From a virus (lineage: Duplodnaviria > Caudoviricetes): a DNA stretch of 64,000 bases. Position 1 is the stretch's first letter. Each line of letters opens with the position of its first letter. The stretch is taken from positions 24,285 to 88,284 of the IMG/VR virus record IMGVR_UViG_3300047160_005790; one strand, given 5' to 3'. The position numbers and the translations under genes were made by a program. A model generated the notes under the pieces. The model searched no databases. It saw only the letters and a list, made by a program, of their open reading frames with translations, and was not told where the DNA came from. Below are positions 38,144 through 62,947 of this stretch, piece after piece.

Positions 38144-38221
38144 GGTACCTCCTATAGTATGGCTTTCGAAGCTCCGGTTGGAACTTCCGCCCGCTCGGGG
38201 TGCGAAGCCGAGCGAGCGGCA
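38144..38221 (-). promoter_or_regulatory. Double-hairpin leader 1
   Basis: CCGCTCGCTCGG/CCGAGCGGGCGG + GAAGTTCC/GGAGCTTC + GAAAGCCA + AGGAGGTACC. Confidence 0.85.
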
Positions 38222-38306
38222 GGCCCAACCAGCCTGCGGGCTCACCGTGCCCAACGGCGAGCCCTTGCGAGCGCGACAGGGGGTCTCCGTTCGCGCTCAC
38301 ATTTGA

Positions 38307-38474
38307 CTACGGGTGAGTCTTAGTCGAGAACAGCGACCCCTTGTTGTCGAACACCGTGCCCTGACCGTTGTGGACGCTCGTCGATGCCCACGCCCAGAAC
38401 GCCAGATAGATGAATACGAGTACGAGCCCGGCGAGCAGAATTCGCCCACCGTTAGTTGAAGGTAGCGCTACCAC
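38307..38474 (-). CDS. Small membrane protein (55 aa)
   Basis: GAGAGGA SD plus GTG; one TM segment. Confidence 0.45.
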   Translation of the reverse strand: MVALPSTNGGRILLAGLVLVFIYLAFWAWASTSVHNGQGTVFDNKGSLFSTKTHP

Positions 38475-39348
38475 TGTACGTTCCTCTCGTTGCGTTGATG
38501 TCGAAGTGATCGGTGACGGTGACGGTGTTGCAGGACACGCTGATCTTGGCTCCGAGCGGACAGGCGTGGAAGCTGAACACCGCTTGCAGGAACGGTCGCG
38601 GCGACGGCAACAATCCCCACGACCAGACCGGGTTGTTGTCGTACGTCCAGACCCAGCGAACAGCCGCTCCGATGCTCGGGTTGACGGACTGGCCGCCGAT
38701 TCGAGTCACCTGCCCGTTAACGACGCAGACCTGCGCCGACACGATCGCGTGCCAGTATTCGTAGCCGGTGATGCGATCGTTGTAACGTACGCCGTCATGG
38801 AGATTGCCGAGCCGTCCTCCGGCCCCACAAGTTGACAGCGCAGTCGCCGCCAGGGCGGCCGAGAAGTCGATCGAGCCGTTGGGATCGTCCACGGTCAGGA
38901 CCTGATTGTTCGGGCCGCCGCTGTTATTGTCGCCGTTCGGCGTCGGGTCGCAGGCGTTGCCGATCCCGTCGCCGTCGGTGTCCCACTGCTTGCCGTTGGG
39001 GAGGCCGGGCTGGCCGGCATTCCAGACCGTCGGACAGTTGTCCACGTTGTCGTGCCAACTGTCCCGGTCTTGATCGGACTGCGTCGGCGTGCAGGCGGTG
39101 TTGGTCATGATGTAATGCCCGCCCTGATCGAACTCCATGCACGTCGTCGCGTCGTAGGCGTTGACGCCCGGATATGTTGGCCAGTATTGGCCGCTGCCGA
39201 CGACTTCGAACGGCATGAGCAACGGAACCTGCCCTCCACAGTCGCGCTGACAGTCCGACGCCTTCGCAGACGCCGAGGTTGCCACCGAACCAGCGAAGAC
39301 GACTGTCAACGCTGACGCGATGGCGAAGAAAGCAATCAGCTTTCTCAT
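38452..39348 (-). CDS. Secreted protein with thrombospondin type-3-like Ca-binding repeats
   Basis: Signal peptide; DQDRDSWHDNVDNCP...DTDGDGIGNACD. Confidence 0.78.
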   Translation of the reverse strand: MRKLIAFFAIASALTVVFAGSVATSASAKASDCQRDCGGQVPLLMPFEVVGSGQYWPTYPGVNAYDATTCMEFDQGGHYIMTNTACTPTQSDQDRDSWHDNVDNCPTVWNAGQPGLPNGKQWDTDGDGIGNACDPTPNGDNNSGGPNNQVLTVDDPNGSIDFSAALAATALSTCGAGGRLGNLHDGVRYNDRITGYEYWHAIVSAQVCVVNGQVTRIGGQSVNPSIGAAVRWVWTYDNNPVWSWGLLPSPRPFLQAVFSFHACPLGAKISVSCNTVTVTDHFDINATRGTYSGSATFN

Positions 39349-39350
39349 TT

Positions 39351-39422
39351 GTACACCCTCCTATTGTATGCGGAACGTCATCGTGACGCTCCCGCCGCCT
39401 CAGTTGCACCGAGGCAGCGGCA
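39351..39422 (-). promoter_or_regulatory. Double-hairpin leader 2
   Basis: CCGCTGCCTCGG/CTGAGGCGGCGG + GGAGCGTC/GACGTTCC + AGGAGGG. Confidence 0.8.
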
Positions 39423-39426
39423 CCGT

Positions 39427-39621
39427 CTACATGCCTACTTGATACCCATTGTGATACCGATTGTGCCACCAGATGGCGAACTTGGTCGGGCCGTGTTCTC
39501 TCGACCAGATCGTCCACCTGAAGACGATGTTCCAGATCCACTTCGGCGCCGGTTCGAGCACCTTATCGACCCAGGTATCGTGCGAGTGGCACCAGCCACA
39601 CTTTGACTTGAACAAAAACAT
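39427..39621 (-). CDS. Small Trp-rich hypothetical protein
   Basis: AGAAAGG SD. Confidence 0.5.
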   Translation of the reverse strand: MFLFKSKCGWCHSHDTWVDKVLEPAPKWIWNIVFRWTIWSREHGPTKFAIWWHNRYHNGYQVGM

Positions 39622-39691
39622 GTTGCCTTTCTAGGGTTCGCGAGTCTTCACGAACCGATCGTATAGGACGACGCTGGTTGTCGCCGCGAGG

Positions 39692-40060
39692 TTAGTCTTC
39701 CTCTGGGAAATCGGCTAGCATCAGCAAGTCAGGAGCACCTGCCGATTCTCCGGTCGGAACGAGTGGGCCGCCGCAATTGTCGCAGCGACGCTCCTCGACT
39801 GGCGTAAACGCCGGCACTGCCAGGTAGCCGTTGCACCAGTGACAGTCGTGCGAACGGATGATCAGGCCCGACTCGCGGTGTTTGACGTAGCCGCGAGCGT
39901 AGCGGCACTTCCATCCCTGACTCGGGATGTGAATCGAATTGTGTGGGAGGCCACACATAACTTCGACCTTCGCCTGCTTCAGAACCGTCTTTGTCAAGTC
40001 GAGTTCCGTCAGCGTCGGTTCGTGTCGTTCGGCGTCCCACTCCCATACTTTTGCTTTCAT
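39692..40060 (-). CDS. Zn-ribbon-containing hypothetical protein
   Basis: CHWC, CDNC; ATG 40060 with SD. Confidence 0.6.
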   Translation of the reverse strand: MKAKVWEWDAERHEPTLTELDLTKTVLKQAKVEVMCGLPHNSIHIPSQGWKCRYARGYVKHRESGLIIRSHDCHWCNGYLAVPAFTPVEERRCDNCGGPLVPTGESAGAPDLLMLADFPEED

Positions 40061-40307
40061 CCTATGGCTCCCTCTCATCGCGTCGCGCGCGGGCGCGATC
40101 TTCATCGCGTACGCGCGAGACAACTTTTTACTACTAGGGTGGGTCTAGGGTGGGTCGGAAAAAGTGCAAGTAAGTCCTTTTTTCTTGTGTCGCGCGTACG
40201 CGATGAGAACGTACGTACGCGGTACGCGCGCGCGCGAGATTTCGGCACCCTTTCGGCAGTCCACACCCGGAATCGCCCACAGATTTCGTGGGCGAAACCG
40301 GCTGGAA

Positions 40308-40541
40308 CTATTTGAACATCCCGTCCAGTTCGTCCAGCTCGTCTTGCGTCAGCGGCTCGTAGTGGTAGTTCGTCTTGCTGTTCACTGGCTGACGACGCAT
40401 GGGATAGACGTTCGTCTTCTGCTTTCCGTCTCGCTTCGTCGTCAGTCGCTGCTTCGGCTGTTCTTTCAAGCTTGCGGAAAGACGATTGATTACGAGCACG
40501 ACTAGGACGATGATCCAGAACACTTCCCAGAACATCGTCAT
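40308..40541 (-). CDS. Small membrane protein
   Basis: N-terminal TM segment; ATGA overlap. Confidence 0.55.
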   Translation of the reverse strand: MTMFWEVFWIIVLVVLVINRLSASLKEQPKQRLTTKRDGKQKTNVYPMRRQPVNSKTNYHYEPLTQDELDELDGMFK

Positions 40542-42430: not shown

Positions 42431-42436
42431 AGTAGC

Positions 42437-42504
42437 GGTACCCTCCTCTGTCTGAAGCGCCGTTCGACGCTTCCGCACTACGGGGTTCCGCCCGTAGCGC
42501 GGCA
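42437..42504 (-). promoter_or_regulatory. Double-hairpin leader 3
   Basis: CCGCGCTACGGG/CCCGTAGTGCGG + GAAGCG/CGCTTC + AGGAGGGTACC. Confidence 0.85.
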
Positions 42505-42587
42505 GGGTCGTCCGATCCTACTCGAAACGGCCTCTCCAGGCGATGCCAACCTCTTGCACAGCCTGTGCGAGCGGTCGAGGCAGCTAG

Positions 42588-43033: not shown

Positions 43034-43238
43034 GGCCGTTGCTGCCAGCGTACGAGCTGCGCACTTCGATTGTGCCGTACCGGAACACCATCAGCAAATC
43101 GCAGTTACAGCACGCGAACGCTTCGACCATGAACAACTCGCCATTGAAGTCAATGGCCTCGGGGAACGGCGCGCGCCGAAAGCCCGGCGGTTCCGCGCCC
43201 GATTGCCCACACTTCGGACAGGTGACGGGATCCCTCAT
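43017..43238 (-). CDS. Zn-ribbon hypothetical protein
   Basis: CPKC...CCNC; preceded by leader. Confidence 0.6.
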   Translation of the reverse strand: MRDPVTCPKCGQSGAEPPGFRRAPFPEAIDFNGELFMVEAFACCNCDLLMVFRYGTIEVRSSYAGSNGHAPAY

Positions 43239-43241
43239 TTA

Positions 43242-43311
43242 GCACCCCCTATTGTAACGAGCCGAACGGCTCCGGCGCCCCGCCGAATGAGTCAGCGAGG
43301 CACCGGCGCAG
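43242..43311 (-). promoter_or_regulatory. Double-hairpin leader 4
   Basis: CGGTGCC../..GGCGCCG + GAGCC/GGCTC + AGGGGGTGC. Confidence 0.75.
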
Positions 43312-43569: not shown

Positions 43570-44115
43570 CTAGGAAGGGCTCCGGCTGCCGCTCGCGGCT
43601 TGCCGATCGGCCCGCGTGCGGTTGCTCGGTCGGCCGCGACGCCGCGGCTGCTCTTCCTCTTCCTTGCCCTTGCCGTCGCTGGCGTTGCGAGCCGCCCGCT
43701 CCGCGTTGGTGGGGCGACCGCGACGCCGCGTACTGGCGCTGCCGCTCGCGCCGTTGCCGTCGCCGTTCTTCTCGGCGGCCTTGCGGCCCGGCTTCGTGGT
43801 CTTCTTCTCCGGGTCGCCGCCCGCGTCCTTCATGAGCTCCTTGAGCTCCGGGATCGGCCGGTCGGCGTAGATCCGGATGCGCTCCCAACGAACGCCGTTC
43901 TCGCGAAGGGCGATGATCTGCTTGCCCATCGCCTTCGGCGTGCCGTTGACCTCCAGGTCGGGGTCGTTGTTGACTTCCGCCTCGTACACGGCGTCGGCGA
44001 CCTGCCCGACGGTGACGCCAAGCTCCCGGGCGATACCAGCGACGGTAAGCCCTTGAGCCTGAAGCTTGTCCACCCTCTTCTGGTCGATGTTGGGCGTGTT
44101 CCTGGGACGGGCCAT
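43570..44115 (-). CDS. HTH DNA-binding protein with two AT-hook (RRGRP) motifs
   Basis: GLTVAGIARELGV HTH; RRRGRP twice. Confidence 0.7.
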   Translation of the reverse strand: MARPRNTPNIDQKRVDKLQAQGLTVAGIARELGVTVGQVADAVYEAEVNNDPDLEVNGTPKAMGKQIIALRENGVRWERIRIYADRPIPELKELMKDAGGDPEKKTTKPGRKAAEKNGDGNGASGSASTRRRGRPTNAERAARNASDGKGKEEEEQPRRRGRPSNRTRADRQAASGSRSPS

Positions 44116-44133
44116 AACTCCCTCCTTGGCTAG

Positions 44134-44142
44134 ATTATAGCA
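44134..44142 (-). promoter_or_regulatory. Extended -10 promoter TGcTATAAT
   Basis: Perfect TGnTATAAT just upstream of the AAGGAGG SD of 43570..44115. Confidence 0.7.
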
Positions 44143-44195
44143 TGGCCTTACAGGGAACTATACGTGATCCTGCTCGTTGTCGCTAGTCCCTGCGA

Positions 44196-44266
44196 GGAAC
44201 GCTTTTCGGGCGTTCCGAGAAGTGCCGAATTCGGCTTGTACAAGCCGTTTTCGGCACAACTCGCAA
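44196..44266 (-). promoter_or_regulatory. Double-hairpin element 5 (not adjacent to an SD)
   Basis: TTGCGAG..GTGCCGAA../..TTCGGCAC..CTCG + GGAACGC/GCGTTCC. Confidence 0.8.
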
Positions 44267-44268
44267 CG

Positions 44269-44496
44269 TCAGCCAGTCGTTTCGACTGACTCGTTCGCTG
44301 CCGCGAGCTCTTGGAGGATGCCGCGCTCGGCGGCTTCCTTTAGAGCGTTGACCGCCCAAGCGGTCGCGGCGTGTTCTAGGTGGGTGCGGCCCGGATCGCC
44401 GCGGTCCCAGTGTTCGAGCCGTTGATAGAGGCGGTCGCGGCGCCGTTCGAGCGCGCCGAGATACTTCCGTTCTTTGCGGCTCAGCGTTGTTGTCAC
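44269..44496 (-). CDS. Hypothetical protein
   Basis: GTGA overlap. Confidence 0.55.
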   Translation of the reverse strand: MTTTLSRKERKYLGALERRRDRLYQRLEHWDRGDPGRTHLEHAATAWAVNALKEAAERGILQELAAANESVETTG

Positions 44497-44759: not shown

Positions 44760-45016
44760 CAGATCGCCACCTTGCCGTCTTTCGTCTGAAAGACGTTCAA
44801 GCCCTTGGCCTTCGCCTTCTCGACGACGTCTTCAACGTCGGCTTGATGAACGACCAGGCGCCCTATGTCGATGACGATGTAGTCTGCATGACTTCGTCCC
44901 GGCAACCAAGAATCGACAAATTCGATGCCCTCGTCGGTGTCGCCGGTCACCCCGGCGACCATCAACTCGCTGTTGATGACGACAGACACGTCGATTGTAT
45001 GTGTGTCACCTTCCAT
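44759..45016 (-). CDS. Hypothetical protein
   Basis: Preceded by leader. Confidence 0.65.
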   Translation of the reverse strand: MEGDTHTIDVSVVINSELMVAGVTGDTDEGIEFVDSWLPGRSHADYIVIDIGRLVVHQADVEDVVEKAKAKGLNVFQTKDGKVAI

Positions 45017-45018
45017 TC

Positions 45019-45078
45019 GGCACCCCTTTCTTTTCGGAGCAGATGCTCCGAGCCCGCCCTCGCGGGGCGGACTCGCAA
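45019..45078 (-). promoter_or_regulatory. Double-hairpin leader 6
   Basis: TTGCGAGTCCGCCC/GGGCGGGCTCG + GGAGCA/TGCTCC + GAAAAG + AAAGGGGTGCC. Confidence 0.85.
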
Positions 45079-45411: not shown

Positions 45412-46064
45412 CAAATCCCCAGGATTGCCGCACACTCGTCGCCTGCTCCGCGCTTGCGACTCGCCTTCTTCGTGAGCACCCGGCCGCAACGAAAACAGCG
45501 GCCGATTTCGCGACCGAAACGCAGACCAGCTTCGAGTGGATCGACAGCGATTGCCGTCAGAATCCCGAGCTTCTTGACAGGATCCTTGATCGGATAGCGA
45601 GCGTCGCTCGCATACACATCGACGAAGATGACGCCGGGATTGTAGCCGTTCTTGATAAAGTAGAACATCAGCTCGGCGCCGGCAACGCCGTCCTTTTCGA
45701 CGGCGTAGCGACCGTTTTCGACAGCCGGATATTGCCGACTAATCGAGATGTCGTCCTTGTAGCGAGGAGCCCGAGGCAGGTTTTTGAGGGCGTCGATGAT
45801 GCGGCTCGCCTTCGGGCCGCTGAGTCGAGTCGTCTCCCAGTCCCAGAACTCGTCCGGTTGCTGGAGCTTAACGCGCTGGTTTTCGGGCAGCTGATCGAGA
45901 TCTTGCGACTCCATGAGATCGCGAATCCAGTTCAGCTGCTTGTCCGATGCATGCTTCGGCTTGCGAAAGCCGCCGCTCGCAGTCTTCTCGAATACGACAT
46001 CGTTTTCGTTGACGCCGTCTCCGAGAATGCTGGCCGGCACGGGGCTTCGTTCGTGTGTTGCCAC
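45411..46064 (-). CDS. DUF6011-like protein
   Basis: GRCFRCGRVLT..AS..RG.G.ECA C-terminus. Confidence 0.7.
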   Translation of the reverse strand: MATHERSPVPASILGDGVNENDVVFEKTASGGFRKPKHASDKQLNWIRDLMESQDLDQLPENQRVKLQQPDEFWDWETTRLSGPKASRIIDALKNLPRAPRYKDDISISRQYPAVENGRYAVEKDGVAGAELMFYFIKNGYNPGVIFVDVYASDARYPIKDPVKKLGILTAIAVDPLEAGLRFGREIGRCFRCGRVLTKKASRKRGAGDECAAILGI

Positions 46065-46065
46065 T

Positions 46066-46131
46066 GGTACCCTCCTTCTGAGGCTTTCTGGAGCGGTTGC
46101 TCCGAGCCGGGGTTCTGGCCCCGACTCGCAA
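46066..46131 (-). promoter_or_regulatory. Double-hairpin leader 7
   Basis: TTGCGAGTCGGGG/CCCCGGCTCG + GGAGC/GCTCC + AGAAAGCC + AAGGAGGGTACC. Confidence 0.88.
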
Positions 46132-46987: not shown

Positions 46988-47066
46988 AGTACCCTACCTC
47001 CTTATGGTGGTTCTTCTGGAGCGAGCCGCGCTCCGCGCCGCCCGTATCGTAACGGGCGACGTGCAA
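46988..47066 (-). promoter_or_regulatory. Double-hairpin leader 8
   Basis: GTCGCCCG/CGGGCGGC + GGAGCG/CGCTCC + AGAAG + doubled SD AAGGAGGTAGGGTACT. Confidence 0.8.
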
Positions 47067-47432: not shown

Positions 47433-47890
47433 CGCTTCGCTCGTTCTTCGAGGATGCGGTTCTTGACGCCGACGGGATTCGGCAGCGTATCTTCCCGCCA
47501 TTCGCCGGTGTACGGATCTCGGTTGTAGGCGCGTTGAAACCATTCGCCCATGTCGATCATGCCGGCGGCGTCGCCGTCGATGTAATCGACATACAGATCG
47601 TAGTTTACGTCGGCTTCCGGGTTGTCGCCCTTGATATCCTTCGCGACATCTTCGGCGATTTTCCGCAGCGATTCCTGAAGCTCGTCGAGATGTGCTCGCG
47701 TCGGCCGACCAGTAGAGAACACCCGTTCCGCGAGCGGCAGAATGTTCTCCATCTTGATGATCAGCTCAGCGAAACCTCGATCACCGAGTTCCGGTTGATT
47801 GCCGAGGCACGAGAGAATCTCCTCAATCTCCATACCAATATCGCTCAGAGATCGAGCAATCGTGTCGGCGTTGTAGCCACTTCTATTCAT
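47429..47890 (-). CDS. Hypothetical protein
   Basis: Preceded by leader. Confidence 0.65.
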   Translation of the reverse strand: MNRSGYNADTIARSLSDIGMEIEEILSCLGNQPELGDRGFAELIIKMENILPLAERVFSTGRPTRAHLDELQESLRKIAEDVAKDIKGDNPEADVNYDLYVDYIDGDAAGMIDMGEWFQRAYNRDPYTGEWREDTLPNPVGVKNRILEERAKR

Positions 47891-47891
47891 T

Positions 47892-48451: not shown

Positions 48452-48453
48452 TA

Positions 48454-52538: not shown

Positions 52539-52543
52539 GCTTC

Positions 52544-52844: not shown

Positions 52845-52846
52845 TA

Positions 52847-52912: not shown

Positions 52913-53206
52913 CTACACCGTCCCTTGCTTGCTACGCAGGTTGCCGCCCGCGCGAAGCTCGACTGAGATGACCGGCAGACTGCCGCGAACGGGCGTGGCC
53001 ACCAGCCAGCTTTCGCTGAACTCCGATTGAGCCTTGTCCTTTCCGGACGTGAACGTGCCCTTGCGATCGTCTCGCCTGATCTTGAACTCGACGCCGTTGA
53101 GCACGACGAACTTGCGGCCGTCGGCGAACGCCTTGCGAATCAGGTCGCCTTCCGATTTGATCGGGCCGCCGGTGCCCGTCGCCGGTTGCTTTTTGGCGGG
53201 CGTCAC
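52913..53206 (-). CDS. Hypothetical protein
   Basis: ATGA-type overlap. Confidence 0.6.
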   Translation of the reverse strand: MTPAKKQPATGTGGPIKSEGDLIRKAFADGRKFVVLNGVEFKIRRDDRKGTFTSGKDKAQSEFSESWLVATPVRGSLPVISVELRAGGNLRSKQGTV

Positions 53207-53391: not shown

Positions 53392-53654
53392 GTCGAGATC
53401 CGCCCTTCCTGATCGACGCCGCCCGAGATGATCCACTCGCCCTTGTCGTCCAGCAACGTGAAGCCGAGGTAGCTGGTGGACAAGCCGAACGTGCCGACGC
53501 CCGCCCGCACCGTCGCCGCCTTGTAGCGCTGAGCGATTCCGACGAGGCTCATGATCTGCTCGCCGGTGATGACGAACTCGCGGTTGGGGTCGATCACGAT
53601 GCCAATCTCGAAGAACGGCTTGCGTTCGACCTTCTCCTGTGGCTCTGTTGCCAT
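53388..53654 (-). CDS. Hypothetical protein
   Basis: Preceded by leader. Confidence 0.65.
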   Translation of the reverse strand: MATEPQEKVERKPFFEIGIVIDPNREFVITGEQIMSLVGIAQRYKAATVRAGVGTFGLSTSYLGFTLLDDKGEWIISGGVDQEGRIST

Positions 53655-53657
53655 TCT

Positions 53658-53730
53658 GGTACCCTCCTAACTTCGGTTTCGGAGGCAACTGGCCTCCCGC
53701 CCAGCCGTTGTGCCTACGGCCGGGCGGCAG
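53658..53730 (-). promoter_or_regulatory. Double-hairpin leader 17
   Basis: CCGCCCGGCCG/CGGCTGGGCGG + GGAGGC/GCCTCC + GAAACC + AGGAGGGTACC. Confidence 0.87.
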
Positions 53731-54045: not shown

Positions 54046-54256
54046 CGTATTGATCCTCCAGGTCATCGTCCTTGCCGACGAGGCCGACTACCAACATCCG
54101 TTGCCAGATGCCGGTGCGCCGGAACTCCCTGATGTGAGTGCGAAGGATATCGCACAATCTGCCGCCGAGCGGATCGCGCGCCAGCCGGTCTGCGAGATAC
54201 TCAGCTTCGTTGACAGACAACTCAATCTGCAAGTTGATCGGACGTTGCGTTTTCAT
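54035..54256 (-). CDS. Hypothetical protein
   Basis: Preceded by leader. Confidence 0.6.
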   Translation of the reverse strand: MKTQRPINLQIELSVNEAEYLADRLARDPLGGRLCDILRTHIREFRRTGIWQRMLVVGLVGKDDDLEDQYDAP

Positions 54257-54257
54257 G

Positions 54258-54318
54258 GGCACCCTCCTTTCCGGAACGCTTGAGCGTTCCGGGCGCCCGA
54301 GTATCGGGCACCCGCAAC
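54258..54318 (-). promoter_or_regulatory. Double-hairpin leader 18
   Basis: TTGCGGGTGCCCG/CGGGCGCCCG + GGAACGC/GCGTTCC + AAAGGAGGGTGCC. Confidence 0.87.
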
Positions 54319-54581: not shown

Positions 54582-54856
54582 GACAGGTCCTCACATTCAC
54601 CGTCGATGATGGCTGCCTCGTAGGGCGAGACGGCTTCGACAAGCCGAGCTTGAAAGCTGAGGCGCGTCAGATCGACGCGGTTCACGTCGAGCAGCGCACC
54701 TGCCGTCAGCTCGTGCTCGCCGCCGGGGTTCGTGATGACCTCGTAGAAGTTGCCGACGGGCATCGTGTACAACACGTAGCCGTCGTTGAACGTCATGCGC
54801 TCGCCGACGAGCCAGCTCTCGCTGTGTGCGAGCCTAGCTAGCGTGATGACTAGCAT
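54578..54856 (-). CDS. Hypothetical protein
   Basis: Preceded by leader. Confidence 0.6.
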   Translation of the reverse strand: MLVITLARLAHSESWLVGERMTFNDGYVLYTMPVGNFYEVITNPGGEHELTAGALLDVNRVDLTRLSFQARLVEAVSPYEAAIIDGECEDLS

Positions 54857-54925
54857 GGCACCCTCCTTTTCTGGTACTGGCACTGCTTTGGCAGCACCGA
54901 GCGACGGGCTGTTGCCCGTCACCCG
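54857..54925 (-). promoter_or_regulatory. Double-hairpin leader 19
   Basis: CGGGTGACGGG/CCCGTCGCTCG + GGTGCTGC/GCAGTGCC + AGAAAAGGAGGGTGCC. Confidence 0.82.
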
Positions 54926-54941
54926 CTACTGCTGCTTGTTG

Positions 54942-55415: not shown

Positions 55416-55436
55416 TTCTGCTCCCTTCGTTGGTTT

Positions 55437-55494
55437 GGTACCCCTATCGGTGCTTGGCAGCACCGAGCGACGCCTCGTTGGGCGTCACTCGCTG
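55437..55494 (-). promoter_or_regulatory. Double-hairpin leader 20
   Basis: CGAGTGACGCC/GGCGTCGCTCG + GGTGCT/AGCACC + AGGGGTACC. Confidence 0.82.
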
Positions 55495-55753: not shown

Positions 55754-56060
55754 CGGTCACCTTCTCGATGTCGTCGAACTGGTAGACCGGCGGCTCGTAG
55801 GGGCTGCTGGCGATGTTGCTGCCGGTTGCGTAGTCTCGCTGATCCTCGCCGTCGCCGGGGTTGCACTTGATCCAGACCTTCGGCGGGATCGTGATGGTGC
55901 GCAGCGTGTCGTCGTCGATGTCAGCGTCCATCGGGGTGATTTCGTGAATCGTGCCGATGGCGTCCTCATCGACGCCGAACTTGACCTTGTCGCCGACCTG
56001 AAGCGCGGCGCCGTTCACATCGACGTATGTTTCGACGTAGACGGTATCTTCGTCGCACAT
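55740..56060 (-). CDS. Acidic hypothetical protein
   Basis: Preceded by leader. Confidence 0.65.
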   Translation of the reverse strand: MCDEDTVYVETYVDVNGAALQVGDKVKFGVDEDAIGTIHEITPMDADIDDDTLRTITIPPKVWIKCNPGDGEDQRDYATGSNIASSPYEPPVYQFDDIEKVTDAQA

Positions 56061-56062
56061 TC

Positions 56063-56137
56063 GGTACCTCCTATGGGTGGCGTTCTTTCCGAAGCTCGGA
56101 TGAGCTTCGAGCCCGCCTGGTGTTGGCGGACCCGAAG
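56063..56137 (-). promoter_or_regulatory. Double-hairpin leader 21
   Basis: CGGGTCCGCC/GGCGGGCTCG + GAAGCTC/GAGCTTC + GGAAAG + AGGAGGTACC. Confidence 0.85.
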
Positions 56138-56422: not shown

Positions 56423-56642
56423 CGACGTCCTCGCTGCCGAGGATGATCAGATCGCCCGTCTTGCCCGGCCCGTGGTGGCCGCCGAGTTCGAGAACGACCC
56501 TGAGCTGATCGTTGGTGAGATTCGGCTCGATCGCGATGGCCCAGTGTTCGAACTTCGGACCTTTGTGTCCGCCGGGGTAGTACGTATGGAACGAGATCCC
56601 AGCGAGACGCAATGCCTCGGCCGTCTGTTGAAACTTGGACAT
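56412..56642 (-). CDS. Hypothetical protein
   Basis: Preceded by leader. Confidence 0.65.
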   Translation of the reverse strand: MSKFQQTAEALRLAGISFHTYYPGGHKGPKFEHWAIAIEPNLTNDQLRVVLELGGHHGPGKTGDLIILGSEDVDAS

Positions 56643-56644
56643 TC

Positions 56645-56709
56645 GGTACCCTCCTGTTTCTGGAGCTCGGTTGAACTCCCGCCCGATTCTTGGTTGAATC
56701 GGGCGGCAA
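56645..56709 (-). promoter_or_regulatory. Double-hairpin leader 22
   Basis: TTGCCGCCCGATTC/GAATCGGGCGG + GGAGTTC/GAGCTCC + AGAAAC + AGGAGGGTACC. Confidence 0.88.
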
Positions 56710-57120
56710 TTACCGATTGAGCGGGTCGTACTCGACGTTGCAGTTCGGGACGCTGTTCTGCATCGTGTTCGGGTCGCATGTGATCGTCGCCTTGACGGAC
56801 AGCGGGCCGAGCGAGTCGCGGCCGTTGAGACTGCAACCGACCGAGTGAGTGTCGGGGTCCGGGACGCAGTTCGTGTCGGAGATCGAGATGTCGTTGATGC
56901 CCGTGTTCGCTTCCTTCGTCAGGAAGTCCTGCTTGACGGCCTCCTCGAACTTCGACTTGTTCTGCTCGTAGTTCGGTGGCGTTGACGGCGACGCCGTTAC
57001 CGACGCTGCTTGCGTCGTCGGATCGGCGCTGCTGTTGTTGCCGCCAGAGAAGACGTTGCCGAGCGCGATACTGACGCCGACAATGGCGACGACCACGAAG
57101 ATCGTGCGGTTCTTGTTCAC
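56710..57120 (-). CDS. Membrane-anchored extracellular protein
   Basis: N-terminal TM segment, S/T linker, Cys-containing domain. Confidence 0.7.
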   Translation of the reverse strand: MNKNRTIFVVVAIVGVSIALGNVFSGGNNSSADPTTQAASVTASPSTPPNYEQNKSKFEEAVKQDFLTKEANTGINDISISDTNCVPDPDTHSVGCSLNGRDSLGPLSVKATITCDPNTMQNSVPNCNVEYDPLNR

Positions 57121-57123
57121 TTC

Positions 57124-57212
57124 GGTACCCTCCTGTTTATGGCTTTCTGGTGTTTTCGGTGCTGCGCGCACCCGCCCTCACCCGTCGTGATATGTGGGTG
57201 AGGGCGGCTGTC
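57124..57212 (-). promoter_or_regulatory. Double-hairpin leader 23
   Basis: GACAG-CCGCCCTCACCC/GGGTGAGGGCGG + GGTGC/GCACC + GAAAA..AGAAAGCCA + AGGAGGGTACC. Confidence 0.87.
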
Positions 57213-57226: not shown

Positions 57227-57328
57227 CTACTTGGCGGTGGCCGCCGCGACGAGCGCCTGGCCCACCGAACCCAGCTTCAGGTTCTTGTGGCGAAGCTTGA
57301 CCTGCGTGATAACGCCCTTGTTCGTCAT
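57227..57328 (-). CDS. Small peptide (33 aa)
   Basis: Has its own leader and SD. Confidence 0.5.
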   Translation of the reverse strand: MTNKGVITQVKLRHKNLKLGSVGQALVAAATAK

Positions 57329-57331
57329 TTC

Positions 57332-57404
57332 GATACCCCTTTCTGGTACGTTCGGTCGAACGCACCCGCCCCAGCACCTTGCCTTGGTGCCGGGGCGGCT
57401 GTCG
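57332..57404 (-). promoter_or_regulatory. Double-hairpin leader 24
   Basis: GACAG-CCGCCCCGGCACC/GGTGCTGGGGCGG + GGTGCGTTCG/CGAACGTACC + AGAAAGGGG. Confidence 0.87.
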
Positions 57405-57714: not shown

Positions 57715-58049
57715 AGTCCACCTCCGAGGCGGTAGTCGAACAGCTCGTCGAGCACCATGACGCACTCGACCACGTCTTCGCAGAACGCGCTGAACAGCCC
57801 GCCCAGGAACGGCAACGGCGAATCGACGAAGTAGATCGGCTCGCAGGCGATGCCGAGGTCGAGGGTCACCCAGCGCGGGTTGTTCTCGTCCGCGACCGGC
57901 AGGAGCACGGCGTTGTACCACGCGCCGCGTTCGTTGGCGTCGGCTTCCTCGATCACCAGTTCTCCATAGTAGGTGTAGTCGAGCCCTTGCTCGCTGTCGT
58001 ACACCGTTCCGTGGTAGAACATCGGACGGCCGATGATACTGACTGTCAT
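57711..58049 (-). CDS. Acidic hypothetical protein
   Basis: Preceded by leader; 19 D/E vs 4 K/R. Confidence 0.65.
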   Translation of the reverse strand: MTVSIIGRPMFYHGTVYDSEQGLDYTYYGELVIEEADANERGAWYNAVLLPVADENNPRWVTLDLGIACEPIYFVDSPLPFLGGLFSAFCEDVVECVMVLDELFDYRLGGGL

Positions 58050-58052
58050 TCG

Positions 58053-58131
58053 GGTACCCTCCTTGCTACTTGGCTTTTCGGAACCGAACCGGCTGGTTCC
58101 GAGCCGCCCCTGCTTTGGGGCGACTCGCAAC
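58053..58131 (-). promoter_or_regulatory. Double-hairpin leader 25
   Basis: TTGCGAGTCGCCCC/GGGGCGGCTCG + GGAACC/GGTTCC + GAAAAGCCA + AAGGAGGGTACC. Confidence 0.88.
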
Positions 58132-58140: not shown

Positions 58141-58497
58141 CTATGCTGCTTCGCGGCGGGCGAGGATCAGCCGAGACCAGGCTTGGGTGAGCACTGCGTA
58201 CTCGGCTTCGACTCGCTCGGCAGTGGCTTCGTACAGCGAATAGCTGAGTTCGAAGCCGCACTCGACGGGATCGCGCATGCCGAAGTTGTGCATCGCCTTG
58301 ACGCCGAACTCGTACCCGCCGTACAGCTGCCCGAGGATGCAATCTTCGTCGCGGCTCAAGTCGAGCCTCGATTCGTCGATGACTGTGTCCCAGATCTCTT
58401 CCTTACCTGGGTCGAGCTTGGCTACGTCGGCGTCGAGGCGGTCGAGCAGCTCGGCGCCGTTGGCGACGCGGCGGTCTGCCTCTTCCATTGTCAACAT
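58141..58497 (-). CDS. Conserved actinophage hypothetical protein
   Basis: V.NGA.LLD...ID...L...CILGQLYG.Y. Confidence 0.65.
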   Translation of the reverse strand: MLTMEEADRRVANGAELLDRLDADVAKLDPGKEEIWDTVIDESRLDLSRDEDCILGQLYGGYEFGVKAMHNFGMRDPVECGFELSYSLYEATAERVEAEYAVLTQAWSRLILARREAA

Positions 58498-58499
58498 CT

Positions 58500-58577
58500 G
58501 GTACCCTCCTTGCTTCGTGGCTTTGTGACTTTCGGGCAATTGCCCCGAAAGCCCCCTTATGTAAGGGGGCTCCCGGC
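58500..58577 (-). promoter_or_regulatory. Double-hairpin leader 26
   Basis: CCGGGAGCCCCCTTA/TAAGGGGGCTTTCGG + GGGCA/TGCCC + GAAAG..AAAGCCA + AAGGAGGGTACC. Confidence 0.82.
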
Positions 58578-58760
58578 GCCGCTGGCCCACCAGTTCATGT
58601 GAGCGGTGAACTGTTCGGACGAGACCCAGACGACCTGCTCGCCTCGCAGCGCTGCCGAAAGCTGCGCCAGCTGGTTGTCCTTGTGAAAGGACCAGCCGAG
58701 GCTCGTTTCGGCGTTGCGGACGGCGTACCAGCCGTCCATCAGTCCTGCGCGCTTCGCCAT
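58557..58760 (-). CDS. Hypothetical protein
   Basis: Preceded by leader. Confidence 0.65.
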   Translation of the reverse strand: MAKRAGLMDGWYAVRNAETSLGWSFHKDNQLAQLSAALRGEQVVWVSSEQFTAHMNWWASGAGSPLT

Positions 58761-58762
58761 TT

Positions 58763-58829
58763 GGCACCCTCCTTGTTTCTGAAGTTCGGATGAACTTCGA
58801 GCCAGCCCTCTTGGGGGCTGACTCGAAGC
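58763..58829 (-). promoter_or_regulatory. Double-hairpin leader 27
   Basis: CGAGTCAGCCC/GGGCTGGCTCG + GAAGTTC/GAACTTC + AGAAAC + AAGGAGGGTGCC. Confidence 0.88.
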
Positions 58830-59420
58830 TCAGCTGATGTCGTCGGTTGTGATTTCCTTGCCCCGCATCGAATGCCAGTCCGGCTCTCTTGAGCCGCCGG
58901 TGTCGCCCGGCAGGAAGCGGTCGAACCAGGCTTGCGGCGGCAGGCCCTCGGGCATAACGTCGCCCCACTTCACCCACTTGTCGTCGGGCCAGCCGACGCG
59001 CCGGAGGGTGAAGTCCTCCGGGCCGTTGGGATCGACGTAGTAGCTGACCACCCAGGTCAGGCCGTCGGGATCAGTGTCGATGAAGAATGCGTTGTCCTCC
59101 TCGTTGAGGAATGGGAAGCTTTCGACATCGAGGAACTCGGCGAGCAACTCGTCGTCCGCTGCCGAGAACACGACGCTCATGTCGTCGCCCTTCAGTTGTA
59201 GGTTGAGGGCGGTCTGCTCGTCTGGGATGTCGTCGCCGCGGTCGAGTGCGATCGCATCGACGTAGCCGATGACCCTGAAGAGGCCCTCGGGATCGACGCC
59301 CATCTCCTCCGCCAGCCCTTTGTGATTTATGCTGACTTCGTCGCCGACGCGGTACAACGTCCGGACTGGCTCGCCGTTGAACTGGTCCGGCGTGCGCGAG
59401 AAGAGTTGATACTCTTCCAT
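58830..59420 (-). CDS. Strongly acidic hypothetical protein
   Basis: Preceded by leader; about 44 D/E in 196 aa. Confidence 0.68.
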   Translation of the reverse strand: MEEYQLFSRTPDQFNGEPVRTLYRVGDEVSINHKGLAEEMGVDPEGLFRVIGYVDAIALDRGDDIPDEQTALNLQLKGDDMSVVFSAADDELLAEFLDVESFPFLNEEDNAFFIDTDPDGLTWVVSYYVDPNGPEDFTLRRVGWPDDKWVKWGDVMPEGLPPQAWFDRFLPGDTGGSREPDWHSMRGKEITTDDIS

Positions 59421-59525
59421 GTACCCTCCTTTGGCTTGGGTTCTGCTGTTTTCGGTGGCTTATGCTACGCGCACCCACCCCTACCGAGCGAGCCTGTGTT
59501 GCTCGTTCGGACGGGGTGGCTGTCG
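59421..59525 (-). promoter_or_regulatory. Double-hairpin leader 28
   Basis: GACAG-CCACCCC../..GGGGTGG + GGTG../..CACC + GAAAA..AAGCCA + AAGGAGGGTAC. Confidence 0.8.
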
Positions 59526-59527: not shown

Positions 59528-59857
59528 CTATGCGTGGTAGTGCTGCGGGCGATACTTGAAGCAGAAGAGCAGGCGGCTCTTGAGCTGGTCCGGCCCCCAG
59601 TAGCAAGCAAATTCCGGGGGATGAATGCGACCGGGGTTGTCGGGGTCGCCGCTGTTGCACTCGACAGCGGGATCGAGGCAGTACTCGAACCCATCTGCCG
59701 CGAGCAATGGGAGAATCTGTTCTGCGTCCTCAGGCGTGTAGCCCAGCGTGTACAGCACGCCGCGAGCGCTGACCGAGTGGTAGTTGGTCTGCTCGATGTC
59801 CTCGCAGTACGAGATCATCTGGGCGACGGCCTCCTTGATCTGCTCGACCTTCAGCAT
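59528..59857 (-). CDS. Hypothetical protein
   Basis: Preceded by leader. Confidence 0.65.
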   Translation of the reverse strand: MLKVEQIKEAVAQMISYCEDIEQTNYHSVSARGVLYTLGYTPEDAEQILPLLAADGFEYCLDPAVECNSGDPDNPGRIHPPEFACYWGPDQLKSRLLFCFKYRPQHYHA

Positions 59858-59859
59858 TT

Positions 59860-59945
59860 GGTACCCTCCTTTTTCTGATGCGAGCTTTGTGCTCCGCACC
59901 CACCCCGGCCCGACACTTTTGCATGTCGGGGCGGGGTGGCTGTCG
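59860..59945 (-). promoter_or_regulatory. Double-hairpin leader 29
   Basis: GACAG-CCACCCCG../..CGGGGTGG + GGTGCG/CGCATC + AGAAAAAGGAGGGTACC. Confidence 0.85.
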
Positions 59946-59947: not shown

Positions 59948-60370
59948 CTAGTTCGCAGCGTTACTCTGTTGTCGTACGGCCAGCATGATCTTCTGATTCT
60001 TGGCTGCCGCTGTTCGGTCGCAGCATTCGCAGAAGACGTTGCCCTTGTTCCTCGGGTCGGAGATGCTCGTGATGTCGATACGGATGCTCGGCGCGCGGTG
60101 TTGTCTTTGCGCCTTGATCCTGATCTCTGCCGCATGCTCGTCGCAGACGAACTTGTGATCGAGGCTTGCGGCGCCGTCGCCGTCGTCGGCCTCGTTGTAC
60201 GCCCAGGCTTCCTGCGTCGCGATCGTGATGCCCTTGGGCGGCCCTGAGGTGACCGGCAGAGTCGCGAACATGTCGCGATTCTGGGGAATGGACGGCTTAG
60301 GCCTGCGATGCGGCCGCCGCGTTGCTTGGTCGTTGCTCGGTCTTCGCCGTTGCTTGCTGCTGTAGCTCAC
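59948..60370 (-). CDS. Hypothetical protein with Cys motifs
   Basis: Preceded by leader; GTG start. Confidence 0.6.
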   Translation of the reverse strand: MSYSSKQRRRPSNDQATRRPHRRPKPSIPQNRDMFATLPVTSGPPKGITIATQEAWAYNEADDGDGAASLDHKFVCDEHAAEIRIKAQRQHRAPSIRIDITSISDPRNKGNVFCECCDRTAAAKNQKIMLAVRQQSNAAN

Positions 60371-60374
60371 TTTT

Positions 60375-60476
60375 GGTACCCTCCTGGAGTTCATCCGTTG
60401 GCTATGATACTCGATGTTGCTGCTTTGCTGCTGAACTCCCGCCCGCTACCGATGCTGTCTGGTAGCGGGTGGCAGG
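60375..60476 (-). promoter_or_regulatory. Double-hairpin leader 30
   Basis: CCACCCGCTACC/GGTAGCGGGCGG + GGAGTTCA/TGAACTCC (large loop) + AGGAGGGTACC. Confidence 0.82.
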
Positions 60477-60989
60477 TCAGGCGGCCTGCTGCTGGCTGCC
60501 GCGGCGGTTGCGCCGCGTCGAGCCGGTCGTGGTCGTACCGGCCTGCTTCGAGCCGTTGCTCTGCGCGCGCCGGGTGCTGTTGCCCCGGCGGCCCTTGGCG
60601 GCCTGAAGCGTGGCCTGCTCGGCCTGCTCGGTCGAGCTGAGGCGGCCGAAGCGCTTGCCGCGCCCGTTGTACTGCGGGTTCAGCCCGGCGTCGGCCAGGA
60701 TCTTGCGGACCTGGCCCTCGCTGATGCCCGCGAACACGGCGACCGCCGGCAGGCGGTACTGCTCGTTGGCCTCGATGACGGCCTGCTCGAAGGACTTGCC
60801 GTTGCGGCCCTTCGTCGCCTTGATGGCGAGGCTGGGGTCCTCGGCGAGCTGCGCCTTGAACCAGAGCCCGGTCGGCAGGCTCGTGCGGCCGTGCTCCTTC
60901 ATGTAGCCGCCCATCGTCTTGCCGGCCTTGACGGCCGCCCGCACGACGTTGATGTCGGTCGGGTCGATCGTGTTGGTCTTGCGTGCCAT
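60477..60989 (-). CDS. HTH-like DNA-binding protein with basic tail
   Basis: LPAVAVFAGISEGQVRKIL; R-rich C-terminus; architecture like 43570..44115. Confidence 0.6.
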   Translation of the reverse strand: MARKTNTIDPTDINVVRAAVKAGKTMGGYMKEHGRTSLPTGLWFKAQLAEDPSLAIKATKGRNGKSFEQAVIEANEQYRLPAVAVFAGISEGQVRKILADAGLNPQYNGRGKRFGRLSSTEQAEQATLQAAKGRRGNSTRRAQSNGSKQAGTTTTGSTRRNRRGSQQQAA

Positions 60990-60992
60990 GGT

Positions 60993-61096
60993 GGTACCCT
61001 CCTTCTGAGCGGATCCCCGCTCGGGTTGTTGGCGAAGCAGGCTTGCTTCACCCACCCCTAGACCGAGCTGTTAGCTCGATGTAGGGGTGGCTGTAG
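60993..61096 (-). promoter_or_regulatory. Double-hairpin leader 31 (extra third hairpin)
   Basis: ACAG-CCACCCCTA/TAGGGGTGG + GGTGAAGCA/TGCTTCGCC + AAGGAGGGTACC. Confidence 0.82.
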
Positions 61097-61097
61097 C

Positions 61098-61128
61098 CTC
61101 CTTGCTCCTTGCTCCTTGCTCCTTGCTC
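61098..61128 (-). repeat. Tandem heptamer CAAGGAG x4
   Basis: + strand CTCCTTG repeated 4.4 times. Confidence 0.85.
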
Positions 61129-61366: not shown

Positions 61367-61606
61367 CTACGGCTTGAGGATGTCAACGGCAACGTGCGGT
61401 TCGCAGCCCTTGCTGAGCAGTTCGGCGAACTCGGCTGGGTCGATCTCCTCGGCAGCGACGCCGATCGCAGACCAGTACGCGACCACGTCCGGGATGTTCG
61501 GGCAGAATTCCTTGATGGCGGCGAGACCTTGCTCTTCCCGCCACCGGAACGCCGCAGACTCGTCTGCTGTGAGGATCTTGGTTCCGATCCGAATGGGACC
61601 GATCAT
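61367..61606 (-). CDS. Hypothetical protein
   Basis: Preceded by leader. Confidence 0.65.
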   Translation of the reverse strand: MIGPIRIGTKILTADESAAFRWREEQGLAAIKEFCPNIPDVVAYWSAIGVAAEEIDPAEFAELLSKGCEPHVAVDILKP

Positions 61607-61608
61607 TT

Positions 61609-61710
61609 CGTACCCCCTACGGTTGGGTGCTGATGCTGCCTTTCAGCGCGTCTTGTGACGCACCCGCCCCAACACCGAACGTTGAAGTTCGATGTTGGGG
61701 TGGCTGTCGC
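61609..61710 (-). promoter_or_regulatory. Double-hairpin leader 32
   Basis: GACAG-CCACCCCAACATCGAAC/GTTCGGTGTTGGGGCGG + GGTGC..GCACC + AGGGGGTACG. Confidence 0.82.
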
Positions 61711-61739
61711 CCTCTTGCGCTAGCTGCTAGCTCGTTGTG

Positions 61740-62312
61740 CTAGCTCGTTGCCTCGCGTCGCGCCGTATCGGCGCGATGCGCTGCTCGCCAATCGCCGTAG
61801 TCGATGATCTTGGCTTGGAGCCCTGCTTGCCGGGCGGCCTCGATCTTGGGGAACGCGGTTGTATGCGGCTCGTAGTGCGTTGTCGAATAGCCGCCCTTAC
61901 TGATGTGCTCCCATCCGATGATCGAGATCAGATCGGTTGGGATGACCCGCGGGTTTGCCTTGAGGCTATCGGCGTAGCCTCGCCAAAAGCCCGCGCCGCT
62001 GACCTGCCCAGCGACGACGTTGCGGTAAACACGCAGCTCGTCGTCGAGCGTTTGCCCGTCGATGCCGTACGTTCGGAACGAGCGGCTGTCTTGACCGTCG
62101 CCCCATGCTTCGGCGAGGTGCTGCGCTTCGAACTGCCGAGCTGCGGCCTCGCTGTGAAGCAGCGGATAGGTCGGGTCGCCGTAATCCTTGTAGTCGGGAT
62201 TGGCGTCCCATGTGATGCCGTCGTAGGTTGTGCCGCGCGCGAACGCATCGTCGTATATGCGACGATACTTTGGCTTGGCAGCGATGAGCTGTTCGATCGT
62301 AACGATCGACAT
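61740..62312 (-). CDS. Hypothetical protein
   Basis: Preceded by leader. Confidence 0.68.
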   Translation of the reverse strand: MSIVTIEQLIAAKPKYRRIYDDAFARGTTYDGITWDANPDYKDYGDPTYPLLHSEAAARQFEAQHLAEAWGDGQDSRSFRTYGIDGQTLDDELRVYRNVVAGQVSGAGFWRGYADSLKANPRVIPTDLISIIGWEHISKGGYSTTHYEPHTTAFPKIEAARQAGLQAKIIDYGDWRAAHRADTARREATS

Positions 62313-62313
62313 G

Positions 62314-62422
62314 CGTACCCTCCTTTGGGGTGTTTGCTTTTCAGCGCGCCTTGTGACGCACCGAACCGCCCCGAACGACCCTCGTTGCTGTTGCTTGAGA
62401 GGGTCGGGTCGCCGGGGCGATC
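62314..62422 (-). promoter_or_regulatory. Double-hairpin leader 33
   Basis: CGCCCCG../..CGGGGCG + GGTG..CACC with the GTGCGTCACAAG-CGCGCTGAAA block shared with leader 32 + AAAGGAGGGTACG. Confidence 0.78.
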
Positions 62423-62426
62423 CGCT

Positions 62427-62527
62427 GCGGGCTGTTATGCCTAGGCCCAGCGCCGACCGCGCGGGCTGTTATGCCTAGGCCCAGCGCCGACCGCGCGGGC
62501 TGTTATGCCTAGGCCCAGCGCCGACCG
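62427..62527. repeat. Three tandem copies of a 34-bp unit
   Basis: GCGGGCTGTTATGCCTAGGCCCAGCGCCGACCGC at 62427, 62461 and 62495; no spacers. Confidence 0.95.
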
Positions 62528-62823
62528 TTGTGATCCGAGTCGCCGGTAAGGGCGATGTGATGCGAGCAGCGCTTGACGCGCTTGCCGTCGATCGTTTTGT
62601 TGACGAGGGCGACGTTTTGACACTTGTCGCCGACGAGGATTTTGACCATGTATTCCGAGCCGTCCTTGCGTTCGCGCTTCAGATTCTTGAAGCTGGCATC
62701 GAGCTTGGCGTCGCATTGCTCATCTTGCGCTAGCTCGATGTTGATTTGGTATATGCTTGGGTTGTTCGCCGAGGCCGATTGTCGTCGGCTTTCGGTTTGA
62801 TGCGCACGGATTGAACCGTACAT
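62509..62823 (-). CDS. Hypothetical protein
   Basis: AAAGGGGG SD after a leader variant. Confidence 0.6.
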   Translation of the reverse strand: MYGSIRAHQTESRRQSASANNPSIYQINIELAQDEQCDAKLDASFKNLKRERKDGSEYMVKILVGDKCQNVALVNKTIDGKRVKRCSHHIALTGDSDHNGRRWA

Positions 62824-62825
62824 GC

Positions 62826-62947
62826 TACCCCCTTTGGCTTGTTTGGCTTGCCTTTCGACCGGCTGGTCTGCGCGGCCCCGTAGCGGCTCGTTTGTTCTGT
62901 CATGTTCTGTAACTTCATGAACTTATCGCCGAGCGGCTACGGGGCCG
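62826..62947 (-). promoter_or_regulatory. Leader variant with an 18-bp inverted repeat
   Basis: 62873-62890 vs 62930-62947 (17/18 complementary) + GACC/GGTC + GAAAG..AAGCCA + AAAGGGGG. Confidence 0.65.

Follow-up and report, generated by a model that had tools for sequence, protein, structure and literature searches.

When one foldable sequence recurs at junction after junction of a phage early region, the question arises whether it is kept as DNA or as RNA, and what it might do there. This question is raised by the IMG/VR virus record IMGVR_UViG_3300047160_005790 (88,284 bp, 61% G+C, complete according to CheckV), whose right 64 kb, positions 24,285 to 88,284, were analysed and are called the window throughout. 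The first-pass annotation of this window had described a tandem double-hairpin RNA leader in about 33 copies within the rightmost 25 kb, a region of around 50 small genes that nearly all lack an assignable function. We find that the element is a structured RNA family without counterpart in Rfam, which is selected as a folded single strand in the mRNA sense, and we tentatively suggest that it punctuates a long early transcript.

A repeated element at the early gene junctions

A covariance model (R1) was built on 18 copies and run over the window with filters off, hits being accepted at E ≤ 0.15. It recovers 33 copies on the minus strand, from 38139 to 62427, all of them on the coding strand and limited to the early region; on the plus strand of the window there are two matches only, both weak (E 0.28 and 0.56), and over the remaining 24 kb of the 88-kb genome no convincing match was obtained. 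In about 28 of the 33 junctions the order is stop codon, hairpin 1, hairpin 2, (A)GAAA(G)CCA, Shine-Dalgarno (SD) sequence and start codon, and both the copy number and the junction-filling arrangement of the first-pass annotation are thereby borne out. Junctions that are free of the element consist of overlaps of -1 to -26 nt (4-nt overlaps, n = 6) or of gaps of a few nt, in agreement with the coupling by overlap that had been proposed for genes without a leader.

Hairpin 1 is a GC-rich stem of freely variable sequence with a core of tightly 10-11 bp. Hairpin 2 (5-8 bp, often GGAGC/GCTCC) abuts it, the spacer being 0 nt in 30 of 32 parsed copies, and is missing from some copies. Between hairpin 2 and the SD lies an unpaired A-rich stretch, and the SD block itself is extended and near-invariant (consensus AAGGAGGGTACC), with the start codon following. 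The 11-mer AGGAGGGTACC, searched with up to 2 mismatches, occurs 31 times where 9.1 occurrences are expected, and 23 of the 31 are minus-strand sites between 42437 and 62324, of which 15 are exact. Conservation beyond pairing or 16S complementarity is found in a YTGC before hairpin 1, a G.G mismatch, the AGAAA and a GTACC that follows the SD. Opening of the SD is predicted to cost little, about 3 kcal/mol, in both of the folds that are described below.

Subfamilies exist and group by position, as had been noticed before. The uniform architecture that had been claimed applies to most copies, the exceptions including a copy with hairpin 1 only (47887-47945), a degenerate one (40239-40310) and one with a weak SD (55432-55494). 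A scan of the 64 kb with Rfam gave no match at the gathering threshold, and at E ≤ 1 just two irrelevant sub-threshold matches.

Selection on a folded sense strand

Covariation was assessed on 71 distinct copies and 13 modelled pairs. In this alignment, which was fitted to the model and therefore somewhat favours structure, 90.1% of the cells are paired as compared to 61.5% in shuffles, and double-sided changes affect 236 cells where 75 are expected. The covariation score amounts to 0.659 against 0.203, and controls in which the partner was slid by 1-3 columns do not exceed 0.144. Hairpin 2 is the best-paired helix of the family (94.3% of cells). Independent of the model-fitted alignment, copies that are likely orthologous, as judged from a homologous flanking gene, show compensatory changes, namely G-C to A-T between the loci L023 (6514) and L016 (6746) and two changes from C-G to A-T between L024 (5227) and L033 (8253).

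The excess of G.T over A.C shows that folding takes place on the sense strand. A hairpin finder that gives both mismatches equal treatment counted 84 G.T versus 36 A.C (p = 1.4e-5), and the pairs of the model itself contain 80 and 12, respectively. The earlier statement that mismatches are exclusively of the G-U kind thus holds as an excess of G.T and fails as an absolute, as A.C occurs as well; the conclusion drawn from it, that a single strand is selected for its folding in mRNA sense, is supported by the covariation, the orthologous compensatory changes and the G.U excess alike.

Stop codon pairing and two competing folds

The stop codon of the upstream open reading frame (ORF) takes a part in the structure that had gone unnoticed, and the tandem fold competes with a second one. 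This codon precedes the core of hairpin 1 by 7-8 nt in 28 of 62 copies and by at most 12 nt in 46 of 62. The flank that carries it shows complementarity to hairpin 2, namely to its 5' arm and loop, and the conserved YTGC pairs with GGAG around the conserved G.G mismatch, a position at which 58 of 67 cells are unpaired. Flank positions 5-8 are paired in 62% of cases, a share that drops to 42% upon exchange of flanks among copies (p < 0.0005), and the stop codon pairs with the arm or loop of hairpin 2 at 2.04 of its 3 positions versus 1.21 after permutation (maximum of 500 permutations, 1.63), as in TGA with TCA or TAG with CTA. Columns 2-60 covary (UA 43, AU 7, CG 4), which may partly be due to subfamily inheritance. 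In predicted folding, the matched flank adds 8.9 kcal/mol compared to 6.0 kcal/mol for swapped flanks (p = 4e-8).

For the naked RNA, the predicted ground state is usually a single long hairpin with a total stem of most often 20-24 bp. Prediction and the complementarity specific to each element both show that hairpin 2 can lend its 5' arm to one partner only, the stop-codon flank or its own 3' arm, so that two exclusive folds result, either the long hairpin (commonly 20-24 bp, with the conserved G.G mismatch) or the tandem pair. Both bear marks of selection, as the flank pairing is element-specific and yet hairpin 2 is the best-paired helix. The designation as a leader is therefore only partly apt: SD and start codon do follow the element, but its beginning is the upstream stop codon, with which it also pairs.

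Two simple uses of this pairing were considered and rejected. Translational coupling through sequestration of the SD is not supported, because masking of the 5' flank leaves the SD opening energy unchanged (3.2 versus 3.0 kcal/mol, p = 0.23). Read-through of the stop codon with gene fusion would favour in-frame intergenic lengths, and this class is not enriched (lengths modulo 3: 5, 13 and 11).

Copies of the element in the window

The copies are listed from right to left; all lie on the minus strand, and bits are R1 covariance-model scores.

62315..62427, minus: copy of subfamily CAGC...GGTGCG with a long branched hairpin 1 (16.6 bits; fold)
61604..61706, minus: copy of subfamily CAGCCACCCC (14.7 bits; fold)
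60988..61100, minus: copy with three hairpins (13.4 bits for the 3' part; fold)
60370..60475, minus: copy with a large loop in hairpin 2 (25 bits)
59855..59942, minus: copy (35.6 bits)
59415..59513, minus: copy with a degenerate hairpin 2 (15.3 bits)
58758..58828, minus: copy in which TGA pairs with TCA of hairpin 2 (57.4 bits)
58495..58579, minus: copy with the stop codon inside the hairpin 1 loop (23.9 bits; sequence reading)
58048..58130, minus: copy (50.8 bits)
57327..57401, minus: copy with a weak SD, AAGGGGTATC (20.3 bits)
57119..57210, minus: copy (39.1 bits)
56640..56709, minus: copy, the model's best match (63.5 bits)
56058..56137, minus: copy (48.5 bits)
55432..55494, minus: copy with a weak SD, GATAGGGGTACC (23.6 bits)
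54852..54928, minus: copy (34.8 bits)
54253..54317, minus: copy (36.7 bits)
53653..53730, minus: copy (46.9 bits)
52842..52913, minus: copy (41.6 bits)
52539..52603, minus: copy ahead of the small ORF 52317-52538 (51.9 bits)
51488..51561, minus: copy (36.7 bits)
50571..50642, minus: copy (56.7 bits)
49809..49887, minus: copy (58.4 bits)
49126..49197, minus: copy (59.6 bits)
48449..48520, minus: copy (47.7 bits)
47887..47945, minus: copy without hairpin 2 (29.7 bits; alignment)
46995..47066, minus: copy absent from the junctions listed in the first-pass annotation (26.2 bits)
46061..46131, minus: copy (59.9 bits)
45014..45078, minus: copy (55.2 bits)
44113..44271, minus: expanded copy with a branched hairpin 1, hairpin 2 GGAACGC/GCGTTCC and about 70 extra nt with TATAAT (folds; not an R1 match)
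43236..43303, minus: copy (34.1 bits)
42432..42505, minus: copy ahead of the SNF2 helicase gene (43.6 bits; helicase domains)
40239..40310, minus: degenerate copy (12.6 bits, E 0.15; fold)
39347..39423, minus: copy (30.3 bits)
38139..38222, minus: leftmost copy (43.7 bits)

Several repeats and gaps lie next to these copies. At 62422-62527 a 34-nt tandem repeat (3.1 copies, 98% identity) spans the stop codon of the gene 62509-62823 and enters the first element, and at 61098-61128 (minus) 4.4 tandem copies of the SD-like unit CAAGGAG follow immediately on a stop codon and precede an element. The array is interrupted by a 247-nt gap (40061-40307) that holds a long GC-rich palindrome around an A/T-rich core together with a direct repeat of CTAGGGTGGGT and that may be a middle promoter or operator region. 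Ahead of the first early gene, at 63012-63029, the leftward transcript carries GGTACCCCTCCT, which is the complement of the SD block plus one base and is not followed by a start codon on the plus strand. A role as a conserved regulator at the head of the operon was considered for this site; in five related records, among them three complete genomes, no antisense copy of the full SD block was found, and the site may be due to chance or specific to the lineage.

Relatives and distribution of the family

Relatives were collected with a two-sequence helicase alignment search, which gave 36 loci whose helicases are 34-48% identical to that of the window and which, together with the window, form about 14 groups. 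In the 32 newly fetched loci (L005-L036), R1 finds 96 matches at E ≤ 0.1, all on the gene strand, that of the helicase, and nearly all upstream of the helicase. Many relatives have the same YTGC, GGAGC/GCTCC, AGAAA and AAGGAGGGTACC blocks, and the SD block is identical even among phages whose helicases are only 45-48% identical. The five related records mentioned above (the three complete genomes are of 60 kb) contain 9-11 full SD blocks each, on a single strand.

Another relative (loci L001-L004) carries other sequences at the same place; these form either a tandem pair or one long hairpin that contains an internal loop, which is in line with the long fold of the window copies, and are followed by an A/C-rich spacer and ACAGGGAGG. 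L004, with a helicase that is 46% identical, has its own leader families at 865-7369 (as do L001-L003), all ending in the A/C-rich spacer and ACAGGGAGG; one family consists of CGCTACCCAGAGC, a variable hairpin and then GCTGGGGGTAGC, and the other is of the tandem-hairpin type. A single antisense GGAGGGTACC stands about 360-530 nt upstream of the helicase start in several relatives and probably lies inside a conserved gene (L016 9626-9635, L021 9470-9479, L023 9634-9643, L025 9613-9622, L033 9628-9637, L024 5637-5646 and L019 433-442).

An exact-pattern scan of IMG/VR returned only 9 stretches, and the same kind of scan over 185,579 bacterial and archaeal genomes returned single scattered matches at about chance level. 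The family is therefore restricted to this phage lineage, and an origin as a repetitive extragenic palindromic (REP)-like family of the host or as prophage copies was rejected on the same grounds. As regards gene order, 15 of 17 informative pairs of relatives lose their homology at the element (7 conserved upstream only, 8 downstream only, 2 on both sides), the relatives being too distant for breakpoints to be placed precisely. There is no signal that the hairpin core travels with one of its neighbours, its identity being 0.58 in upstream-only and 0.60 in downstream-only pairs over a background of 0.56.

Source genome and early region

Genes of the window are directed leftward from about 18 kb up to the right end. 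Apart from the SNF2 helicase, the domains recognised in the early region are a few helix-turn-helix (HTH) domains, DUF2786 and DUF6011. As the helicase shares at most about 31% identity with its counterparts in cultured actinophages, the phage belongs to an uncultured lineage, and a blastn search of one element against 50,697 phage records gave no relevant match. Near-identical DNA is present in many soil metagenomes; the contigs from four soil DNA runs are short pieces with nearly no differences from the window and contain no usable variants or breakpoints. The early protein encoded at 60477-60989 (minus, 170 aa) stands out by a G+C content of 0.98 in the third position of its codons and by a C-terminal tail that is basic and of low complexity, and positions ~7820-8490 of L004 appear to encode a protein with a similar tail, as read from the unaligned DNA.

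A consensus scan detected no sigma-70-like promoter inside the elements. In 20 kb it flagged 2 promoter-like sites versus 3.3 expected, both within 47137-47185 and upstream of the copy at 46995-47066. U-tract terminators number 25 versus 21.4 expected and are thus at chance level, with nearly all on the opposite strand and the minus strand likewise at chance. What stands downstream of hairpin 1 is hairpin 2 and AGAAA with no U-tract, which is not the form of an intrinsic terminator. The absence of U-tracts and promoter motifs that had been stated earlier was hence confirmed, and since the elements lack both, the hairpins must be transcribed through if the downstream genes are to be expressed. 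A perfect TATAAT at ~44134-44139 (minus) in the expanded junction before the gene 43570-44115, about 10 nt ahead of the SD and unflagged by the consensus scan, may be an internal promoter.

Known systems of a similar kind

In the literature that we found, the exact form of the element, the stop-codon pairing and the bistability are not described. The earlier claim that no described family has this form therefore holds for the exact form, whereas the kind, repeated modules of hairpin and ribosome-binding site (RBS) between small phage early genes, is known from SAS (start-associated sequences) with their extended form, ESAS (PMC3203893; PMC7302621), from PeSL (promoter-early stem-loop) cassettes (PMC2839356) and from T7 RNase III sites. 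The SAS is an RBS-containing motif of about 11-13 nt that is conserved well beyond the RBS and lies 3-9 nt before many non-structural starts (consensus GGGATAGGAGCCC in cluster K and GGGAAAGGACCCC in cluster EF), and the ESAS is a sequence-conserved, imperfect inverted repeat of 17 bp with SigA-like -35/-10 hexamers, now read as promoter plus inverted repeat (PMC3203893; PMC7302621). The likeness lies in an RBS-containing motif before the starts of a subset of genes (in the window AGGAGGGTACC, which precedes many early genes, 15 times exactly), an inverted repeat just upstream, and hosts of the Actinobacteria type. However, the consensus here is AGGAGGGTACC or AAGGAGGGTACC instead of GGGATAGGAGCCC or GGGAAAGGACCCC, the stems vary with compensatory changes and lack hexamers whereas ESAS arms are conserved in sequence and carry them, and only the present element has two competing folds that include the upstream stop codon.

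The early mRNA of T7 has hairpins repeated between its cistrons; RNase III cuts there, and the hairpins subsequently shield the 3' ends of the upstream RNAs. The element resembles these sites as a series of related hairpins between the cistrons of one long early transcript, each with a stem of about two turns and an internal mismatch or loop, placed between a stop codon and the next RBS, and here too the hairpin is proposed to stay on the upstream RNA. There is no sequence similarity to T7, the copies number about 33 versus about 10, cleavage is a prediction, and the element has in addition a second, competing hairpin as well as an SD block that is fixed. The put sites of HK022 are two promoter-proximal antiterminator copies of conserved sequence; like the element, they place two stem-loops side by side, nearly without a spacer, on an early phage transcript. 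They differ in that about 33 copies occur here, each tied to a stop codon and an RBS and some dispensing with hairpin 2, and put-like antitermination, one of the options raised before, is unlikely at this copy number. The option of integron attC-like sites is weakened as well, as the core sites RYYYAAC/GTTRRRY are absent, the conserved ends being YTGC and GGAGC or AGAAA, and as no recombinase was recognised among the 52 early proteins scanned. PeSL cassettes of T4-type phages combine a strong sigma-70-type promoter with a working terminator (PMC2839356). They are likewise repeated regulatory units between small non-essential early genes, with a stem-loop beside a standard start region; gene content changes at the cassettes and may do so at the element. 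However, neither promoter nor U-tract was found in the element of the window, and its conserved part is RNA structure plus SD.

Possible functions of the element

From our point of view, the element can tentatively be regarded as intercistronic RNA punctuation, i.e., as a site of processing and 3'-end protection joined to an open, standard RBS, a reading that we draw from the analogy to the T7 early RNase III sites and that may well turn out to be wrong. Such cis-acting RNA elements would punctuate a leftward early transcript of about 23 kb, whose small genes have no recognisable internal promoters. The structured part would be the site of processing and 3'-end protection, with the long form resembling a T7-type RNase III site, and the A-rich stretch would be a possible site for a single-strand nuclease. 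Processing would leave a stable hairpin that caps each upstream cistron, and each downstream cistron would gain the same short, open leader with a strong RBS. Tight folding from the stop codon to the SD could at the same time leave little naked RNA to Rho or nucleases, and the shared ends of the element may secondarily act as joints for gene exchange. A hairpin of about two helical turns with a mismatch on an early polycistronic RNA is indeed what a T7-type site looks like. The placement on the coding strand, the selection on a folded sense strand, the lack of promoters and U-tracts in the elements, the open RBS and the support for the long fold are further points in favour of this reading. 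However, several points weigh against this proposal. The determinants of RNase III in Actinobacteria are poorly defined, so that a substrate-like appearance is weak evidence; processing alone leaves the covariation of hairpin 2, the fixed spacing between stop codon and hairpin and the GTACC after the SD unexplained; the strong SD could act without any processing; and the public runs listed for the window sequence include no RNA run.

The main alternative, which we consider unlikely, but which would account for the fixed spacing, is a translation-sensing switch or coupling device, in which a ribosome at the stop codon melts the lower stem and the freed 5' arm forms hairpin 2, so that the two folds report upstream translation and may gate nuclease attack; the device might also pass terminating ribosomes over the folded spacer to the nearby SD in a shunt-like re-initiation. 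The ribosome has its helicase site some 11-13 nt 3' of the first base in the P site, which matches the observed spacing, and with the stop codon in the A site, established ribosome geometry brings the hairpin 1 core to where the mRNA enters the ribosome. The distribution of stop codons, their pairing above the permuted level and the support for both competing helices fit this idea, as does the fact that the tandem fold brings stop codon and SD out of the same junction. On the other hand, masking of the flank does not change SD accessibility, the very strong SD of the downstream genes should recruit ribosomes unaided, and the flank covariation may in part be inherited with the subfamily. The lower stem includes the stop codon, at a fixed spacing of 4-5 nt to hairpin 1; every ribosome that terminates there would hence flip the long hairpin into the tandem fold, and the element might thus be a ribosome-operated bistable RNA, with the fate of the junction following upstream translation either by nuclease cutting or by a shunt-like hand-over of ribosomes to the spatially adjacent SD; we regard this, too, as unlikely, and slightly more so, and to our knowledge no phage intercistronic device of this type has been known.

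The remaining explanations are less probable. GC-rich hairpins that directly follow stop codons could be tail-less intrinsic terminators or attenuators, similar to PeSL units without the promoter, at which partial stops of the polymerase at each junction would create a gradient of early expression, and terminators without poly-U reportedly occur in the early region of the actinophage phiC31. The stem-loops of PeSL do terminate (PMC2839356). Yet we think such a role improbable, since a series of about 33 terminators with no promoter in between would shut off the distal genes, the helicase included, and since no U-tract is present; nor would hairpin 2, the A-rich stretch or the connection to the SD be explained. 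A little less probable still are binding sites for a phage or host RNA-binding regulator through which all early genes would be switched jointly, candidates being a RegA-like translational repressor, an antiterminator or a nuclease with specificity for the hairpin junction or the SD block. What makes this conceivable is the conservation of GTACC, YTGC and the G.G mismatch, for which pairing offers no evident reason, to which the AGAAA and the identity of the SD block across diverged phages can be added, and comparable SAS motifs are likewise suspected to be regulatory (PMC3203893; PMC11373665). It is opposed by the finding that no RNA-binding or nuclease domain, and only a few HTH domains, were recognised among the 52 early proteins, and by the lack of conservation in the loops and most stem sequences. 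Finally, the element might act at the DNA level, as a recombination joint or mobile palindrome similar to attC, to miniature inverted-repeat transposable elements or to PeSL, that moves or swaps gene cassettes and whose RNA folding is incidental. Such a role is suggested by the frequent end of homology at the element, by conserved ends that offer 11-30 nt of shared sequence and by a stop codon that is supplied by or contained in the element. We consider it very improbable, however, as the asymmetry of G.T and A.C indicates one folded strand, the conserved SD block keeps a functional distance from the start codons, no bacterial genome with multiple copies was found, and boundaries of phage mosaics lie between genes anyway; moreover, no integrase-type domain was recognised among the 52 early proteins, the remaining genome being unscanned.

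Significance

Overall, the present analysis describes a new structured RNA family with about 130 copies in at least 10 species-level groups of uncultured soil phages and with unusually clear covariation. It provides an entry point to the expression of around 50 small early genes on a long transcript without visible internal promoters, and the embedded stop codon together with the competing folds represents a testable link between translation and RNA fate at the gene junctions of high-GC hosts. The role of SAS in actinophages has been open since 2011, and the element family may bear on these motifs. Beyond that, the element could serve as a combined intercistronic insulator and RBS part for Actinobacteria.

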